Shown here piece after piece: positions 4,701 through 11,052 of a stretch of 11,052 bases of DNA. The position numbers and the translations under genes are program-made. The notes under the pieces are model-generated. The model ran no database searches. It saw nothing but the letters and a program-made list of their open reading frames with translations, and was not told the DNA's origin. The stretch is from a virus (taxonomy: Duplodnaviria; Heunggongvirae; Uroviricota; Caudoviricetes). The number at the start of each line of letters is the position of its first letter. Positions within the stretch are counted from its first letter, which is position 1. The DNA is taken from IMG/VR virus record IMGVR_UViG_2667528155_000009; one strand, given 5' to 3'.

Positions 4701-5204
4701 TTACAACAGATGGTCACTGGTCATGTCTCTGATACTGCTGGCGGTAACTGCTTCGTAGCGTCTGTATTGCTTGTATGGCTTCATCACACTCCCGTTCAAA
4801 ATCCGTAACAGGCGCACCAAGAAGTACCGCATTTGCCACTGCGGTTTTTTTAAAAACTGTGTAAGCAGATACTCGATGCTATGCCCTGCCGTGACCTGCT
4901 TATGCAGCTCCGGCGCGTGTATCCGGATTGCTTCAAGAACTGCGGGGATTAGCGCTGAAAACTTTTCGCGGTGCTCTGTCGTTTCGAGTTTTCGCCATCG
5001 CTGAAAAATGTTTATACGATTCCGGCGCCATGCTTCGTAATCCACCGTTCCGTCATCACGTTCTATACGGTGGACAGCAATATCTGGTCTCACTTGCTGT
5101 TCCAGAAAGGCGCGGGTGATCAACTGTGTTGCACTTTCCTGACTCATTGCGGGTGTAGCCAGCCAGGATGACAGTGCTTTGTTGGCATCCTCAGGGGTGA
5201 TCAT
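4701..5204 (-). CDS. YdaT-like protein (167 aa), occupying the cII-equivalent position
   Basis: Immediately downstream of the Cro-like gene; segments LITRAFLEQ and SALIPAVLEAI resemble Rac YdaT as I recall it. GAGGTG 7 nt upstream of the ATG; the start overlaps the end of the Cro-like gene (translational coupling). Confidence 0.55.
   Translation of the reverse strand: MITPEDANKALSSWLATPAMSQESATQLITRAFLEQQVRPDIAVHRIERDDGTVDYEAWRRNRINIFQRWRKLETTEHREKFSALIPAVLEAIRIHAPELHKQVTAGHSIEYLLTQFLKKPQWQMRYFLVRLLRILNGSVMKPYKQYRRYEAVTASSIRDMTSDHLL
4714..4730 (-). repeat. Boundary motif copy 1 (encodes the YdaT-like C-terminus RDMTSDHLL)
   Basis: Plus-strand TCACTGGTCATGTCTCT; identical 17-mer at 4125-4141. 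Confidence 0.7.
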
Positions 5205-5466
5205 CGTTGTTCACCTCTCTCGCATCCTTTAGTGGTAGATTTTGATGGCTAGGCAAAGCATCCGTTGGATTAGGGTAAAGAACTGAGTCGAGCTGATGCG
5301 GTGTAACTGCATACCCTACGGCCTCACAAAAAGGAATAATTCGTCGCGGTGGGAATTTTCCTGTTGTAACCCATAGACTTACGTTTTGCTGACTAGTTTT
5401 AAGACGTCGGGCGATCTCGGTCTGATTAGTGATGCCGAATAGTCGGCTCCTGGTTTTAAATTCCAT
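5191..5466 (-). CDS. Cro-like / YdaS-family HTH regulator (91 aa from the ATG at 5466)
   Basis: HTH segment ITNQTEIARRLKTSQQNVSLWV; C-terminal IIPFCEAVGYAVTPHQL resembles the YdaS pattern. GGAGG 4 nt upstream of the ATG at complement 5464-5466; the ORF-track start at 5484 is a GTG. Divergent from the repressor gene. Confidence 0.7.
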   Translation of the reverse strand: MEFKTRSRLFGITNQTEIARRLKTSQQNVSLWVTTGKFPPRRIIPFCEAVGYAVTPHQLDSVLYPNPTDALPSHQNLPLKDAREVNNDDHP

Positions 5467-5484
5467 ATATCCTCCAAATGTCAC

Positions 5485-5565
5485 ACTTGTATAAATACAG
5501 CATGAACTTGTATTTTACAAATTTAAATTTGTGTGACGCTAACAAAATTTACTTGTAAAATATGA
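5485..5565. promoter_or_regulatory. Immunity switch region: three operator-like dyads with divergent PR-like and PRM-like promoters
   Basis: Dyads ACTTGTATAAATACA (5485-5499), ACTTGTATTTTACAA (5506-5520) and ACTTGTAAAATATGA (5551-5565), core TTGTA-N3-TACAA. Minus-strand promoter TTGTAA (5515-5520) N17 TATTTA (5492-5497) faces the Cro-like gene. Plus-strand promoter TGTGAC (5532-5537) N18 TAAAAT (5556-5561) faces the repressor. Confidence 0.5.
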
Positions 5566-5568
5566 GGT

Positions 5569-6003
5569 ATGAAAAAAAACAACGAATCAGCTCAATACGA
5601 GACTTCAGCCAGAAGGATCAAACAGGTCCTGTATGAATTAGGCTGGAACCAAAGTCGCCTGGCTAAAGAAATTGGGGTTTCAGCTCAGGCGGTACAACAA
5701 TGGGCAAAAGGTACTTCTCGACCGAATGGCCCTAATCTAACTCGACTTTCTGAAGTCACAAGCAAACCTGAAGCATGGTTTTTCAGTGATGTCAGCGGGT
5801 TATCTGAGAGTCATGCAGTACATTTACCAGAAAGTAATGGTTCAGACTTTCTCCCGCTTAGCGATGAAGAGATCAGACTGCTAACTGTCTTCAGGAAATT
5901 TCCTTCTGTAGAGAGTAAAAACATGCTGTTAGCGTTTGAGATGAGACTTCAGGAGATAAAAGAATACTATTCCAAATACGCTAATCCCAATAAAAACCGA
6001 TAG
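5569..6003 (+). CDS. DicA/RacR-like prophage repressor (HTH_XRE, 144 aa, no S24 peptidase domain)
   Basis: HTH NQSRLAKEIGVSAQAVQQWAKG; C-terminal LSDEEIRLLTVFRKFPSVESKNMLLAFEMRLQEIKEY parallels DicA as I recall it. Divergent from the Cro-like gene across the operator region. Confidence 0.8.
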   Translation: MKKNNESAQYETSARRIKQVLYELGWNQSRLAKEIGVSAQAVQQWAKGTSRPNGPNLTRLSEVTSKPEAWFFSDVSGLSESHAVHLPESNGSDFLPLSDEEIRLLTVFRKFPSVESKNMLLAFEMRLQEIKEYYSKYANPNKNR

Positions 6004-6029
6004 TCTCCTTCTTTCCTCCCCCAACAATC

Positions 6030-6056
6030 ACAAGCCTGCTTGAAATGCAGGCTTGT
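6030..6056 (+). other. Perfect 10-bp hairpin just after the repressor stop (ACAAGCCTGC-ttgaaat-GCAGGCTTGT), no U-tract
   Basis: Direct reading; shares its GCCTGC/GCAGGC stem core with hairpins at 7401-7415 and 7768-7785. Confidence 0.5.
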
Positions 6057-6128
6057 TACACCTCGCATAATAAAACACTTAAATTTCATACAATTAAAAA
6101 TTTTTAGTGATTTTCTCACTTTAAACAC

Positions 6129-6157
6129 TTGTATTTATCAAATCCATTTTGTAGATT
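6129..6157 (+). promoter_or_regulatory. PL-like promoter with overlapping operator-like site
   Basis: TTGTAT (6129-6134) N17 TAGATT (6152-6157); the -35 is embedded in AACACTTGTATTTATCAA, which repeats the ACTTGTA operator core. A second operator-like copy, ACACTTAAATTTCA, lies near 6073-6090. Confidence 0.35.
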
Positions 6158-6239
6158 GATTGTACAAATCCTCTAGCAACACATGCGCGACAGGTAAACG
6201 TTCCGCCGACGGGCGTAAAACAAAGATGAGGACGACAGA

Positions 6240-6428
6240 GTGGACAAGACTGAACTGAAACACATTATCGCCCTGCTCCTGGAAGATGCAAAACGTCTTC
6301 AGCAGGTTGAACCAAATGCAGGCACTGAGGCCCGCATATGGTTGGCTAATAAAACACTTAATTCATTCAGAGAGTTAAGCGGTTTTGCAAGAGGGTCAGG
6401 TATCTCTACCGAACACCAACTTTCTTAG
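6240..6428 (+). CDS. Hypothetical small protein (62 aa, GTG start)
   Basis: GAGG 8 nt upstream of the GTG; first ORF downstream of the PL-like promoter. Overlaps the convergent minus-strand zinc-ribbon ORF by 23 nt. Uncertain. Confidence 0.3.
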   Translation: MDKTELKHIIALLLEDAKRLQQVEPNAGTEARIWLANKTLNSFRELSGFARGSGISTEHQLS

Positions 6429-7914: not shown

Positions 7915-10900
7915 ATGAGTGATAAGAAAGAAGATTTCGCGCTGTACTGCCCTGTTAAAAATGAAGAGGCCAGGAAACGACTTGGAATAAAAGCAGGCTT
8001 TTTCTGGGCAACTGCAAAAAAATTATCTGTGGCTGTTTCCCGCTGTATTGCTGCTATGGACGATAAGGGGTATGACGAGGATGACTTTAAAAAACCTGTT
8101 CGCGTCAATTACCCCGTCGTTAACGACCTGCCTCCTGAAGGCGTGTTTGATACTGAATTCTGCAACCGTTACGAAAAAGGCGGTCAGGGTGGTATCACAA
8201 TGGTACTTATCCCCGGCGCTGTTCCCGCCGATCCAATGCACGGCGAAGTCGGCAGGGATATTACTGGCAGCGGCAACGCAGACGCAGACGCAGACGCAGG
8301 CACAGACGCAGATAATGCTACGGACAATACCGAAAGTACGCTCCTCCCCGCTTACGCTTATAACGTCAACGGCGAACTGATGTCGGAAGTGGAAAAGGAA
8401 ATGTCGCAGCCTGTTTCAGGACTAAGTCTGCCACTTCGTTTCCTGGCGCAATTTAATAACGACTGTCCACAACATCAGGTCACACCAGAGCGTTTACGGG
8501 AGTTAAACCTTACAGAGCAGGATCCCGACAGTCGTACCGGAACTATTTTACTCGCCATCCAGAACAGAAAGGAACAGCTCGAAAAACTGGACACAAAAAA
8601 CCTGCATCCTTTGGCGACGTACATTGAAAAAGTATTTCCCTGCGGAAAACGACCACAACTCAATGATGTCATTAATTTTATCGATGCCGTACTTAATACA
8701 GACTATGTCGATCGCGGACTGCTCGTTAAGGAATGGTGCGAAGGTCGTCGAGCCGCGTGCGTAGAGCATGTAACAGCACCAGAAACCAGGCGTGATAATA
8801 CTGTGTCAGCGCAGACGGAAACGAAGACTACTGTCACTGAACGTCCGCGTCGTAGCGAAAAAACAACGCACCGGACGATTAATTATGAAATTGGCTGTGG
8901 CTTATATGACGGCGAGCTGGATCTTCATAACCTGAGGGAACCGCTGGATTTTGCGAAACGCATTATGGCGAAAGACCGGGAAGACTGGAAAGTATGGTCA
9001 GACACAATCAACTGCATCCCTGGCATCCTGAATTATGACCGCCAGACCATTATCGAGATGGTACGAAAAGCCCCCACCCCGACTTATCACAGTGCTGCAC
9101 TGCGCCGCGAGTGGTGTGATTCTTATCTGCGAGCCTGGGGACGGCTCGATCCCGACTGGAGCCAGAGCGCCGCTGTCAAAACAGCAGAGTCACATGAAGA
9201 TGTCTGTGCTGATATCAGGAAGGCCGGAAAGCGCCTGCGTGAAATTGAATCAGGAGTTGGGATCAATGAAGAAAAACAGACGACACAGGGAGAACTGGCA
9301 GATGAACCGTCAGCGCCTGAATCAGTGGAACCGGCTTCAGCTGAACATCAGCAGAATACGCAGCCGCTGGATGCTGAGGCATCTGTAAACACCACTAAAA
9401 CGGAATTCGATGTATTTGCTCTAATGCAGAACTCATCTGTTTATGGCAGCAAAAACACACAGGAGACGACCAGCAATGTGCAGGTTCAGGACGCTGAAAA
9501 GGATGAAAAACAGGCTGGTACTGAAGTTCAGTCAGGCGAAAGCAGTCTGGGAACTGGTGAAGAGTCAGATACCAGACAGCAAGCCGATGTAAACCAGAAT
9601 ACGGATTCTGTCGCCCAAAATAGCGATTCTGTAAACCAAACTGAACCAGTTTTGGCACAAACCGAGCCAGAAGTGCAATCTGACGAACCGGCTGTTGTTT
9701 ACCCCGCTTACTTCGAACCAGGCCGCTATGAGGGTCTGCCGAACGAGGTTTATCACGCAGCCAACGGTATCAGCTCGACAATGGTAAAAGATGCGCGGGT
9801 GAGCCTGATGTACTTCAATGCGCGCCACGTAGAGAAAACCATTATCAAAGAACGCTCTCCTGTACTGGATATCGGTAACCTGGTGCATGCACTGGCGTTG
9901 CAGCCAGATCAACTCGATGAAGAATTCAGCATTGAACCCGTAATTCCGGAAGGTGCATTTACCACCACGGCAACGATCCGCGCGTTTATTGATGAGCACA
10001 ACGCCAGCCTGACAGCGATGCTGTCAGCCGACGACATCAAAGCACTGTTAGAAGAGTACAACGCCACCCTTCCTGCTCAGGTTCAGTTAGGTGGTTCCGT
10101 GGAGGAAACTGGCCAGAGCTATATGTCGCTGCCAGAAGAGTTCCAGCGTCTCGAAGCGGACAAGAAGCAGACCGCAGCGGCAATGAAAGCCTGCATCAAG
10201 GAATACAACACCACACTGCCTGCACAAGTGAAAATCAGCGGTAGCCGTGATGCGTTACTCGAGCAGTTAGCAATCATCAATCCTGACCTGGTGGCGCAGG
10301 AAGCGCAGAAGCCCGCGCAGTTGAAAGTGTCCGGCACCAAAGCGGATCTGATTCAGGCCGTGAAGTCTGTTAATCCTGATGCCATCTTCGCCGACGAACT
10401 GCTGGATGCGTGGCGCGAAAATACGCAAGGGAAAGTGCTGGTCACCCGCCAGCAACTGAGCACTGCACTGAGCATTCAGAAAGCCCTGCTCGAGCACCCT
10501 ACAGCGGGCAAGCTACTGACACACCCGAGCCGCGCCGTTGAGGTGAGCTACTTCGGTTTTGACGACGAAACCGGTCTGGAAGTCCGCGTTCGTCCCGACC
10601 TTGAGATCGATCTTGACGGGGTGCGCATCGGCGCCGACCTGAAAACCATCAGCATGTGGAACATTAAACAGGAAGGTCTGCGCGCCAAACTGCACCGCGA
10701 AATCATCGACCGTGACTACCACCTGAGTGCTGCCATGTATTGCGAGACCGCAGCGCTTGACCAGTTCTTCTGGATTTTCGTCAACAAAGACGAGAACTAC
10801 CACTGGATCGCCATCATCGAGGCATCCGCCGAACTTCTGGAACTGGGCATGCTGGAGTACCGCAAGGCAATGCGCGCCATCGCTACCGGCTTTGACACTG

Positions 10901-10977
10901 GCGAGTGGCCAGCGCCGATCACCTCCGGTAACTCCGATGAAATAGCCGACTACACCGACGAACTGAACGATTTCGAC
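7915..10977 (+). CDS. recE: RecE-like exodeoxyribonuclease VIII, 1021 codons with no stop; 3' end replaced by the chimeric junction
   Basis: C-terminal PD-(D/E)XK-like block RVRPDLEIDLDGVRIGADLKTIS; position at the distal end of the PL-like operon of a Rac-like immunity region; GAGG 10 nt upstream of the ATG. The reading frame runs into N's and 16S sequence after codon 1021 (DFD). Family call is from recall, not a search. Confidence 0.7.
8275..8310 (+). repeat. In-frame tandem hexanucleotide repeat (GACGCA-like, 6 units) encoding a D/A-rich low-complexity tract
   Basis: AACGCA GACGCA GACGCA GACGCA GGCACA GACGCA, translating to NADADADAGTDA. Confidence 0.7.
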
Positions 10978-11052
10978 NCNTGCCATCNGANGNGCCCAGA
11001 TGGGATTAGCTAGTAGGTGGGGTAACGGCTCACCTAGGCGACGATCCCTAGC
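10978..11052 (+). rRNA. 16S rRNA gene fragment (about 75 nt, enterobacterial, corresponding to roughly positions 220-290 of E. coli 16S); not native to this locus
   Basis: TGCCATCNGANGNGCCCAGATGGGATTAGCTAGTAGGTGGGGTAACGGCTCACCTAGGCGACGATCCCTAGC matches the conserved 16S region as I recall it. Abrupt junction with N's at 10978, 10980, 10988, 10991 and 10993, inside what would otherwise be the RecE-like coding frame. Confidence 0.8.

Follow-up and report, generated by a model that had tools for sequence, protein, structure and literature searches.

A Rac/Gifsy-like immunity switch with candidate ACAA-N7/8-TTGT operators and a probably leaderless repressor mRNA in a lambdoid prophage of E. coli

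What kind of switch occupies the 102-nt gap at positions 5467-5568, the exact interval between a minus-strand cro-like open reading frame (ATG 5466) and a repressor ATG at 5569, which DNA would its repressor bind, and where would the repressor mRNA begin? These questions were addressed in the window, i.e., the whole 11,052-nt stretch of DNA that was analysed (Table 1). Positions 5150-6250 had no megablast match in phage records or in complete E. coli genomes, and since the nucleotide search had given none, homologous loci were reached via the repressor protein. One of these loci, L079 (GCA_037004945.1), does not differ from the window over positions 5437-6260. Rfam gave no hit anywhere in the window. 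The prophage itself is widespread among E. coli draft genomes.

Table 1. Positions of genes, promoters and candidate operators of the switch in the window
Feature	Position	Strand	Remarks
YdaT/CII-like gene	4701-5204	-	downstream of cro-like gene; YdaT core motif shared, BLASTP 3e-8
Cro-like (YdaS-family) gene, 91 aa	5191..5466	-	open reading frame list; same gene called in loci L076-L079
Shine-Dalgarno GGAGGA of cro-like gene	5471..5476	-	4 nt from ATG 5466; read from sequence
Extra TTGTA half-site	5487..5491	.	with TACAG 5496-5500 forms site 1 (N4), straddling PR -10; read from sequence
Predicted PR-like promoter	5492..5520	-	-35 TTGTAA (reverse complement of 5515-5520), 17-nt spacer, -10 TATTTA (reverse complement of 5492-5497); start near 5484-5486
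Proposed operator O1, TACAGC-ATGAA-CTTGTA, 17 bp	5496..5512	.	in PR spacer; overlaps first 2 nt of PR -10
Perfect dyad of the earlier note, TTGTA-TTT-TACAA	5508..5520	.	read here as O1 right half plus O2 left half
Proposed operator O2, TACAAATTTAAATTTGTG, 18 bp	5516..5533	.	overlaps PR -35, abuts PRM -35; centre -44.5 from ATG 5569
PRM-like repressor promoter	5533..5561	+	-35 GTGACG 5533-5538, 17-nt spacer, -10 TAAAAT 5556-5561; promoter scan
Proposed operator O3, AACAAA-ATTTA-CTTGTA, 17 bp	5541..5557	.	in PRM spacer; overlaps first 2 nt of PRM -10
Predicted transcription start	5568..5569	+	at A of repressor ATG or 1 nt before; inferred
Repressor gene, 144 aa	5569..6003	+	N-terminal HTH_3 and DicA/Gifsy-type C-terminal domain
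Terminator-like hairpin after repressor gene	6030..6056	+	10-bp stem, 7-nt loop, weak T tract; repeat search
PL-like promoter	6129..6157	+	-35 TTGTAT 6129-6134, 17-nt spacer, -10 TAGATT 6152-6157; start expected near 6163-6165; inferred
Proposed OL operator, ATCAAA-TCCAT-TTTGTA, 17 bp	6137..6153	.	in PL spacer; overlaps -10 by 2 nt
First open reading frame of leftward (PL) operon, 62 aa	6240..6428	+	GTG start; GAGGA 6 nt upstream
RecE-like exonuclease VIII	7915-11013		further downstream in leftward (PL) operon

The locus is very probably an immunity switch of the OR type, belonging to a lambdoid E. coli prophage of the Rac/Gifsy kind. In lambda, a tripartite OR lies between the divergent promoters PRM and PR, with one operator abutting the PRM -35 and further operators repeated at PL. 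The window resembles it in its proposed tripartite OR, in a candidate operator against the PRM -35 and in copies at PL; repressor and cro genes diverge, their promoters are overlapped by repeated dyad operators, and the predicted starts are ~83 bp apart, compared with the textbook 82 bp for the PRM and PR starts of lambda cI/cro. The earlier note had proposed an immunity switch with back-to-back promoters overlapping dyads, and a lambdoid immunity switch with divergent promoters is supported. The cro-like gene opens the rightward lytic operon, and the GGAGG of its Shine-Dalgarno sequence is conserved among homologues; GTG 5484 was rejected as its start because it lies upstream of that sequence. 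The Pfam YdaS match to the 91-aa Cro-like protein is weak (E=2e-5, 24.6 bits, below the cut-off of 30), and BLASTP of this protein against K-12 YdaS found no similarity. For the YdaT-like gene, a precomputed PF06254 match is present on the identical gene. The YdaS-like and YdaT-like genes are divergent from the repressor, as in a Rac-type immunity module, and with DUF1376/DnaC-type replication genes on the same side and recE on the other they follow the order found in Rac and CP-933P.

Pfam detects HTH_3 alone in the 144-aa repressor (E=3.5e-10, residues 18-71), and the PDB matches are the N-terminal domains of P22 C2 and 434 repressor. Gifsy-2 GtgR shares 37% identity with it over 117 aa (E=8e-22), and DicA 28% over 123 aa (BLASTP 3e-12). 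The DicA model of NCBIfam matches residues 11-134 with 48.7 bits, below the curated cut-off of 101 for a DicA orthologue (NF007257). As judged from these comparisons, the repressor is a relative of DicA and no DicA orthologue. Homology includes the C-terminal domain (the region of the L-x-x-x-E-x-x-L-L-x-x-F-x-x-x-P motif), since the C-terminus is included when the protein is aligned with DicA, GtgR and 13 relatives. A Pfam search for Peptidase_S24, the LexA/CI-type autocleavage domain, gave no match in the 144-aa protein, which falls within the size range of short repressors devoid of this peptidase (~135-145 aa). The earlier description of a short DicA-type repressor without a protease domain therefore holds, with HTH_3 only, no S24 and DicA homology from end to end. 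Unlike lambda CI, the protein has no RecA-dependent autocleavage domain, and its C-terminal domain bears no relation to the S24 fold. Recognition helix 3, (S/T)(A/P)QAVQQWAKG, is nearly invariant across the repressor family, and its Gln40 and Gln44 align with Q29 and Q33 of 434 repressor, which contact the outer ACAA of the 434 operator ACAA-N6-TTGT. The textbook 434 operators, read by these glutamines of helix 3, are 14 bp long, whereas the dyads in the window measure 17-18 bp with ACAA-N7/8-TTGT.

Several characterised switches share parts of this design. GtgR is the closest characterised homologue of the window repressor and belongs to the GfoR/GtgR pair of Gifsy-1/-2 in Salmonella; the Gifsy repressors and the window repressor are ~136-144 aa long and have no cleavage motif (PMC3121763). 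Gifsy also has recE downstream in the leftward operon, and the promoter geometry of Gifsy-2 (TTGTAAAAT, 6 nt, ATG) is identical to that of the window. The operators differ, which would follow from the differing helix 3 (SHTSVRKW there, SAQAVQQW here), and the Gifsy Cro and CII analogues are unlike YdaS/YdaT. Antirepressor control is proven for Gifsy (PMC3121763), whereas a search within the window for an antirepressor gene or a LexA box found neither. Perfect LexA boxes are absent and none lies near the switch; the similar CTTGTATAAATACAG was rejected for its N6 instead of N8 spacing. An ORF6N-domain gene sits elsewhere in the prophage (locus L076). In the DicA-DicC system of the cryptic prophage Qin of E. 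coli K-12, DicA is homologous to the window repressor over both domains and is a non-cleavable protein whose repression the antirepressor Rem lifts (PMC10448788, PMC4681348), but its operators are of the TTAGC/GCTAA type, unlike those of the window, and DicC is not YdaS-like, unlike the Cro-like protein here.

The gene order of RacR-YdaS-YdaT in the cryptic prophage Rac, including the DUF1376 replication and DnaC-like genes, is that of the window, its gap has three inverted repeats, as many as the dyads proposed here, and its strongest racR promoter yields a leaderless transcript (PMC9638921). The racR -10 is located 6 nt from the ATG. However, RacR shows no significant similarity to the window repressor (E=0.027), and its operators are (T/A)TAGGC-n3-GCCTA(T/A) in a gap of 123 bp (PMC9638921), compared with 102 bp here. 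The PaaR2-YdaS-YdaT locus of CP-933P/Sp12 in E. coli O157:H7 has a short repressor divergent from ydaS-ydaT across a gap of 97 bp, likewise compared with 102 bp, back-to-back PRM/PR-like promoters under repeated dyads and a distal PL-like promoter with operator (OL) copies (PMC8630535). The likeness to PaaR2 is one of locus layout. Its repeats are GTTTAGTAA-type 18-bp palindromes in place of the ACAA/TTGT of the window, and the paaA2-parE2 toxin-antitoxin pair that follows paaR2 is absent here.

To locate the start of the repressor mRNA, the promoter was compared among relatives. The PRM-like -10 TAAAAT at 5556-5561, already pointed out in the earlier note, is present with GTGACG 17 nt upstream. 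All five close homologues retain TGACG and, at the same 17-nt spacing, TA(A/G)A(A/C)T, and the layout of -35, 17-nt spacer and -10 is invariant across five loci with 59-70% identical repressors (four diverged homologues by another count). The distance from the -10 to the ATG is 7 nt in the window, 6 nt in Gifsy-2 and in four close homologues, and 6-7 nt in all 15 distinct distant loci, 14 of which have 7 nt. In Gifsy-2, the ATG at that distance yields a 136-aa product, which matches the reported length of the Gifsy-1/-2 repressors (PMC3121763). ATG 5569 is the sole possible start, given the in-frame TGA at 5563-5565 and homologue N-termini that align from its Met. No functional Shine-Dalgarno sequence is found at normal spacing, and the predicted mRNA is free of structure over its first 30 nt. 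Given the conserved spacing between -10 and ATG in relatives and the lack of a usable Shine-Dalgarno sequence, the mRNA of the repressor probably has no leader, so that the same suggestion of the earlier note gains comparative support.

Such a start would not be unusual. Lambda cI is leaderless when transcribed from PRM and also has leadered transcripts from PRE. The leaderless short-repressor switch is an ordinary design, already documented for DicA, RacR, PaaR2 and lambda cI. By dRNA-seq, dicA, racR and ymfK mRNAs are leaderless (PMC4681348); a leaderless racR transcript arises from the PracR3 promoter (PMC9638921); and for paaR2, 5' RACE placed the start at the AUG and the N-terminus was sequenced (PMC8630535), whereas leaderlessness in the window is predicted. 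It could be argued instead that the repressor mRNA is mainly leadered, its transcription beginning further upstream at a constitutive or a YdaT/CII-dependent, PRE-like promoter, with GAGG at 5564-5567 as ribosome-binding site. This GAGG is retained in 4/5 close homologues, RacR has two further upstream promoters (PMC9638921) and YdaT positively regulates paaR2 (PMC8630535), as would suit an additional leadered source. However, GAGG stands 1 nt from the ATG, compared with the usual 5-9 nt, and is missing in the Hafnia homologue and distant relatives; the sole conserved sigma70-like promoter on the plus strand ends 7 nt before the ATG; and a search for a TTGC-N6-TTGC box of the lambda CII type found none nearby. 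A mainly leadered mRNA is thus unlikely. Leadered transcripts may accompany the predicted leaderless mRNA, given the additional promoters that RacR has upstream (PMC9638921).

For the opposite strand, the PR hexamers and their 17-nt spacing are conserved in homologues (TTGTCA-17-TATTTT; TTGCAT-17-TAATTT). Because the consensus match in the window is weak (7/12, with a -10 TATTTA that lacks the usual final T), the position of the PR-like promoter is given as a prediction. An alternative PR (-35 GCGTCA, -10 TAAAAT, reverse complement of 5512-5517), whose fit to the consensus is equal or better and whose hexamers are not conserved in homologues, was rejected.

Beyond the repressor gene, homologues carry a hairpin of other sequence at the place of the terminator-like hairpin, followed by a T run. 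The PL-like promoter is kept in 5/5 homologues, which have TTGTAA or TTGCAT, 17 nt, and then TAGCCT, TAATCT or TAAGTT. Another candidate (TTCTCA 6113-6118, TATCAA 6136-6141) fits the consensus equally well or better and was set aside, its hexamers not being conserved in homologues. The proposed OL lies within the spacer, in the same geometry as O1 at PR and O3 at PRM, and is flanked by the half-sites TTGTA 6129-6133 and TACAA 6163-6167. Operator copies at a distal PL are thereby represented by a 15-of-17 copy at 6127-6143 and the in-spacer dyad of the conserved promoter at 6129-6157. From the OL/OR-like arrangement claimed earlier, the recurrence of the half-site at a PL-like promoter stands, while the coordinates do not, the conserved promoter at 6129-6157 overlapping 6073-6142 only in part. 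RNAalifold of the conserved PL leader found no convincing structure, the only hairpin being one of 4 bp with a single compensatory pair.

TTGTATTTTACAA (5508-5520) is a perfect 5+3+5 dyad, and the 17-mer ACTTGTATTTTACAAAT (5506-5522) has a second copy, differing at 2 positions, at 6127-6143; 0.03 matches of this kind are expected from shuffles, and none of 200 shuffles gave two. All four ACTTGTA 7-mers of the 11-kb window fall within the OR and PL regions. Using dinucleotide-preserving shuffles drawn from the AT-rich OR and PL regions themselves, TTGTA/TACAA was found 4 times at OR against 1.04 expected (reached in 26/2000 local shuffles) and 4 times at PL against 0.45 expected (0/2000). TTGTA-N3-TACAA with up to 2 mismatches is not enriched window-wide (6 found, 5.45 expected). 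The claim of three such dyads did not survive: only 5508-5520 is a true one, since the first site (5487-5500) reads TTGTA-N4-TACAG and is symmetric at 1/5 positions in homologues, and the third (5553-5565, TTGTAAAATATGA) has an arm match of 3/5 and again 1/5 symmetry in homologues.

How the half-sites are paired is a question of register. Three 17-18-bp dyads can be drawn at OR, alongside the extra half-site at 5487-5491 and an alternative register. At the position of O1, the loci L063, L067 and L070 have the perfect 6/6 dyad TACAAAATGAATTTGTA, and the half-site 5487-5491 is missing from them. O2 contains a perfect 16-bp palindrome (5517-5532; repeat search), a result reached in 9/2000 local shuffles, and its ACAA-N8-TTGT is retained in homologues. 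O3 lies at -28 to -12, the location of perfect TACAAG-N5-CTTGTA dyads in distant relatives; its symmetry in close homologues is 4-5 of 6. In the window alone the same half-sites serve both registers, which are therefore about equal in score. Across the wider family, represented by 34 unique intergenic regions, ACAA-N7-TTGT occurs 38 times and TTGT-N5-ACAA 8 times, and the 17-bp ACAA-N7/8-TTGT register is moderately favoured over TTGTA-N3-TACAA. Some features run against it. At the PL of homologues, the opposite register forms a perfect dyad of 16 bp, CTTGTA-GCCT-TACAAG, across the -10, and site 1 (5487-5500) of the window straddles the PR -10 in the same manner; furthermore, the spacing of O2 is N8, not N7, and the left half of OL, ATCAAA, is weak.

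The competing arrangement of the earlier note would have three 13-bp TTGTA-N3-TACAA operators (5487-5500, 5508-5520 and 5553-5565) bound by repressor and Cro, with a fourth at 6129-6141. The dyad at 5508-5520, perfect in the window, is still 4/5 symmetric in homologues and agrees with 6129-6141 at 11/13 positions; the dyad at the PL -10 of homologues has this orientation; and the proposed sites would straddle the PR -10 (site 1) or overlap the PRM -10 and the ATG (site 3), much like the RacR O3 over its own ATG (PMC9638921). Its spacing is inconsistent, however (N4, N3, N3, plus N9 at the second PL site of the window), sites 1 and 3 have the poor arm symmetry in homologues already described with the left half of site 1 deleted there, its TTGT-N5-ACAA spacing is about five times rarer family-wide than ACAA-N7-TTGT, and distant relatives that share the helix form perfect dyads at the O2/O3 positions (the PRM half) only in the 17-bp register. 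Three 13-bp operators are therefore an unlikely solution.

It has also to be considered that the TTGTA repeats are mainly promoter context, i.e., -35-like TTGTAx and TTG before a TAnnnT -10, with operators that differ or are split between two proteins or registers. Each TTGTA of OR and PL falls on a predicted -35 hexamer or a -10 edge. Even Gifsy-2, with its different recognition helix 3, retains the TTG directly upstream of TA(A/G)AAT, within TTGTA(A/G)AAT, and so do the group B/C relatives, whose other dyads are clear TGAAAA-N5-TTTTCA; because of this conservation, the right half of O3 may be promoter context instead of operator. For PaaR2 and YdaS, reading of two registers by two proteins has been suggested, their footprints overlapping two repeat kinds (PMC8630535). 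On the other hand, the partner ACAA half-sites at fixed N7 spacing are no promoter hexamers, perfect 16-17-bp palindromes are improbable by chance, and in group A as well as in the window family, conservation of helix 3 goes together with sites of the ACAAG type. Promoter context as the main explanation of the repeats is accordingly quite improbable.

With the 17-bp register preferred, a Rac/Gifsy-like OR switch with 17-18-bp operators and a leaderless repressor mRNA is the likely explanation as a whole. In this model, repressor dimers would bind the three dyads O1, O2 and O3, (T/A)ACAA(A/G)-N5/6-(C/T)TTGT(A/G), and a related site at the PL-like promoter (6137-6153). O1 and O2 would cover the PR spacer, -10 edge and -35, so that cro/ydaT, the replication genes and the lytic genes would be shut off. 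O2, abutting the weak repressor -35 and centred at -44.5, might activate PRM; in lambda, CI activates PRM from OR2, which is at that position. O3, inside the repressor promoter, would provide negative autoregulation. Presumably the Cro-like protein is a competitor for this DNA, the pairing of each protein with a register being conjectural. Transcription from the repressor promoter (-35 5533-5538, -10 5556-5561) would start at A5569 or 1 nt before it and lead to leaderless translation. Having no autocleavage domain, the repressor is presumably inactivated by an antirepressor encoded elsewhere.

A bolder reading, rather doubtful at present, is that the PRM cassette is a conserved module of heteroimmune prophages of Salmonella, Klebsiella, Cronobacter, Hafnia and E. 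coli, with specificity coming from other dyads or a second register. The cassette may comprise CTTGTA(A/G)AAT, 6-7 nt and a leaderless ATG, with the helix QAVQQWAKG almost invariant outside Gifsy-2, and dyads of the ACAAG or TGAAAA type may then set the immunity specificity, unless the Cro-like protein does so through a second register. If this were true, heteroimmune prophages residing in one cell could act on each other's PRM/O3 through their repressors, or two operator codes could be interleaved on the same half-sites. In any case, the locus extends the DicA/Gifsy/PaaR2 class of non-cleavable prophage repressors by one immunity type, and its coordinates can be used for annotating the switch in this prophage. 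What is new in the window is the operator specificity, for which ACAA-N7-TTGT is the candidate, while the leaderless promoter-to-ATG geometry is conserved class-wide and supports leaderless translation as a general trait of such repressors.

The stretch 5467-5568, described in an earlier note as a compact immunity switch, is the entire 102-nt gap (OR) separating two divergent genes. The switch is real, and the earlier description was right in outline. The 91-aa minus-strand protein gives a weak YdaS-family match in Pfam. For the 167-aa product of the next gene, a Pfam scan returned no family at E<=0.01, and the BLASTP match to K-12 YdaT was confined to a core of 29 aa (E=3e-8); a precomputed table assigns PF06254 (YdaT_toxin) to the identical gene of L077 and L079, loci of the same prophage. 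Replication genes (DUF1376 and DnaC-like) lie beyond it, and small ORFs and a RecE-like exonuclease VIII lie downstream of the repressor. A hairpin with a weak T tract follows the repressor gene and is probably its terminator; in homologues this position is occupied by a hairpin of other sequence and then a T run. Loci with an identical repressor show the order integrase, recET, repressor, replication genes, Q-like antiterminator and holin, a full lambdoid prophage. The element is often carried by E. coli draft assemblies, and 168 indexed assembly blocks contain the exact repressor. No megablast match to 5150-6250 was found in the phage collection or in 5,426 complete RefSeq E. coli genomes, a collection from which one indexed record, the 5.1-Mb CP046278.1, was evidently absent. 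The translation of 53-229 contains X residues, reflecting ambiguous bases near the window's left end.

Coordinates of genes, predicted promoters, proposed operators and the putative terminator
Feature	Position	Strand	Description
YdaT-like gene	4701-5204	-	next after cro-like gene; YdaT core motif shared; 167 aa
cro-like ORF	real start ATG 5466	-	SD GGAGGA 4 nt upstream; 91 aa
Repressor ORF	ATG 5569 to 6003	+	144 aa
PRM (predicted)	-35 5533-5538, -10 5556-5561	+	GTGACG, 17-nt spacer, TAAAAT; consensus scan; O3 fills spacer
PR (predicted)	-35 rc 5515-5520, -10 rc 5492-5497	-	TTGTAA, TATTTA; O1 in spacer
PL (predicted)	-35 6129-6134, -10 6152-6157	+	TTGTAT, TAGATT; dyad ATCAAA-TCCAT-TTTGTA 6137-6153 in spacer
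O1 (proposed)	5496-5512		TACAGC-ATGAA-CTTGTA
O2 (proposed)	5516-5533		TACAAATTTAAATTTGTG
O3 (proposed)	5541-5557		AACAAA-ATTTA-CTTGTA
Hairpin (probable terminator)	6030-6056		after repressor gene; 10-bp stem

Pfam assigns the repressor an HTH_3 domain but detects no protease domain in it. Among characterised proteins, GtgR, the Gifsy-2 repressor, is its nearest relative (37% identity, E=8e-22). It can also be aligned from end to end with DicA of Qin (28% identity, E=3e-12), and the NCBIfam DicA model spans residues 11-134 with a score under the model's cut-off. Similarity to RacR was not significant. The short Gifsy repressors have no Ala-Gly/S24 cleavage module, and antirepressors inactivate them (PMC3121763); DicA, also without this module, is inactivated by the antirepressor Rem (PMC10448788). 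The window's repressor belongs to this Gifsy/DicA class, so its earlier characterization as short, DicA-type and free of a protease domain is correct.

The gaps of four diverged homologous loci (Cronobacter, Hafnia and two others), with repressors 59-70% identical, were aligned with the window. The -35 TGACG and the 17-nt PRM spacer are invariant, the -10 reads TAAAAT, TAAACT or TAGAAT, and the distance from -10 to ATG is 7 nt in the window versus 6 nt in all four homologues. Among 59 distant loci with repressors 35-43% identical, representing 15 distinct sequences, TTGTA(A/G)AAT lies upstream of the aligned Met, 7 nt away in 14 sequences and 6 nt in one. The Gifsy-2 counterpart reads TTGTAAAAT-GTGAAT-ATG, and the ATG at 6-nt spacing yields 136 aa, the length published for the Gifsy-1/-2 repressor (PMC3121763). 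The deposited Gifsy-2 annotation (L080, NC_010393.1) starts the repressor at GTG 1468 (139 codons), with ATG 1474 lying 6 nt after the TAAAAT -10; because ATG 1474 gives this length and spacing, the annotated start is probably two codons too long.

ATG 5569 is the sole possible start, since it is preceded by an in-frame TGA two codons away and the N-termini line up from this Met. GAGG at 5564-5567 stands just 1 nt before the ATG and is absent from the Hafnia homologue and the distant relatives, and the predicted mRNA is A-rich and unstructured over its first 30 nt. Because T5568/A5569, 7-8 nt past the -10, is an ideal pyrimidine/purine pair for initiation, transcription is predicted to begin with the A of the AUG or 1 nt earlier. 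There are strong experimental precedents: dRNA-seq of E. coli K-12 found only five leaderless mRNAs, dicA, racR and ymfK among them (PMC4681348), the strongest racR promoter gives a leaderless transcript (PMC9638921), and 5' RACE, N-terminal sequencing and mass spectrometry showed the same for paaR2 (PMC8630535). The conserved spacing, sole ATG and precedents support the earlier suggestion of a leaderless repressor mRNA, which is quite probable with the start position itself a prediction. By analogy with RacR, extra upstream repressor promoters are possible.

The TTGTA half-site is real. All four copies of ACTTGTA in the 11-kb window fall in OR or at PL, and 6127-6143 is a second copy of the 17-mer 5506-5522, differing from it at two positions (0.03 expected). 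Against dinucleotide-preserving shuffles of these AT-rich regions themselves, TTGTA/TACAA occurs four times at OR (1.04 expected; reached by 26/2000 shuffles) and four times at PL (0.45 expected; 0/2000). The three TTGTA-N3-TACAA operators proposed earlier are not borne out. A true N3 dyad exists at 5508-5520 only; the arms of 5487-5500 are N4 apart, the second being TACAG, 5553-5565 is 3/5 symmetric, and in homologues the latter two fall to 1/5 symmetric positions. Over the whole window, the degenerate pattern shows no enrichment (6 found vs 5.45 expected).

Successive half-sites point in opposite directions (TTGTA 5487, TACAG 5496, TTGTA 5508, TACAA 5516, TTGTG 5529, AACAA 5541, TTGTA 5553), and pairing them the opposite way yields the dyads O1-O3. 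Inside O2, between the two -35 elements, lies a perfect 16-bp palindrome, ACAAATTTAAATTTGT (5517-5532), on which the earlier note was silent and which was reached in 9/2000 local shuffles. O1 is a perfect 17-bp palindrome, TACAAAATGAATTTGTA, in three homologues, where O3 symmetry is 4-5/6, and distant relatives carry perfect TACAAG-N5-CTTGTA dyads precisely at the O3 position, -28 to -12. Across 34 unique family gaps, ACAA-N7-TTGT occurs 38 times vs 8 for TTGT-N5-ACAA. Repressor helix 3, (S/T)(A/P)QAVQQWAKG, is nearly invariant among relatives and aligns with TQQSIEQ of 434 repressor, keeping the Gln equivalents of Q29 and Q33. The 434 repressor uses these residues to read the outer ACAA of ACAA-N6-TTGT operators. 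The 434-like Gln residues would fit dyads with ACAA outside, a lead and not a test.

Judged from the window alone, one register fits about as well as the other, and the site at 5487-5500 straddles the PR -10 as the homologues' PL dyad straddles the PL -10. The family comparison tilts us modestly towards the 17-bp register for the candidate operators; on that reading, 5508-5520 is a junction of the O1 right half and the O2 left half. Part of the TTGTA signal is likely promoter context, because TTG before the -10 persists in Gifsy-2 despite a different helix 3 and in relatives with TGAAAA-N5-TTTTCA dyads and an unchanged helix 3. For PaaR2/YdaS, the authors found two overlapping repeat types that they could not assign (PMC8630535).

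Several side observations concern these sites. The O1 centre ATGAA (5502-5506) is invariant in all five aligned homologues, although dyad centres can usually vary. In L077 and L078, natural variants of the same prophage, G5531A disrupts the right TTGT half of the 5517-5532 palindrome and may be an operator polymorphism. In the relatives that form groups B (L029, L030, L041) and C (L053, L059), which share the recognition helix TPQAVQQWAKG, the stretch ~80 to 12 nt before the repressor ATG has clear TGAAAA-N5-TTTTCA dyads upstream and a hybrid TGAAAG-N5-CTTGTA or pure ACAAG-type site at the O3 position; this points to mosaic exchange within the gap or to different sites being read by two proteins.

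The predicted PRM, PR and PL have a common layout, with a spacer-filling 17-bp dyad that ends TTG|TA and whose TA opens the -10. The PR layout is kept in homologues (TTGTCA-17-TATTTT and TTGCAT-17-TAATTT), and that of PL in 5/5 loci. O2 overlaps the PR -35 and adjoins the weak PRM -35, and its centre at -44.5 is comparable with that of lambda OR2 at -42; the predicted PR and PRM starts are ~83 bp apart. PR would be repressed from O1 and O2, PRM may be activated from O2, and O3 would serve autoregulation of the repressor, the same logic as in lambda.

The predicted PL-like promoter with the operator core, placed earlier at 6073-6142, lies mostly outside that range; among homologous loci 6073-6124 is poorly and 6125-6170 strongly conserved. 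In homologues a perfect CTTGTA-GCCT-TACAAG, in the orientation of the earlier proposal, straddles the -10. Just past the PL -10, at 6154-6162, the window carries 5 nt more than the four homologues (GATTG/ATTGA duplication), an insertion that turns their CTTGTA-N4-TACAAG (perfect in the homologue L063) into N9 spacing. The insertion also makes a new palindrome, TTGTACAA, at 6160-6167. In the PL leader (6189-6222), a block GCGACAGGTAAACGTTCCGCC...GGCG with a small CGCC/GGCG hairpin is kept in 5/5 loci; it has no Rfam match and just one compensatory pair, and may act as a leader element, nut-like or of another kind.

The PaaR2/YdaS/YdaT switch has the same architecture: its gap is 97 bp, its repressor is leaderless, and OL sites accompany its PL (PMC8630535). 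The switches of RacR and DicA match as well. What is new here is only the immunity specificity, that is the operator sequence, and the class-wide conservation of the promoter-to-AUG cassette.
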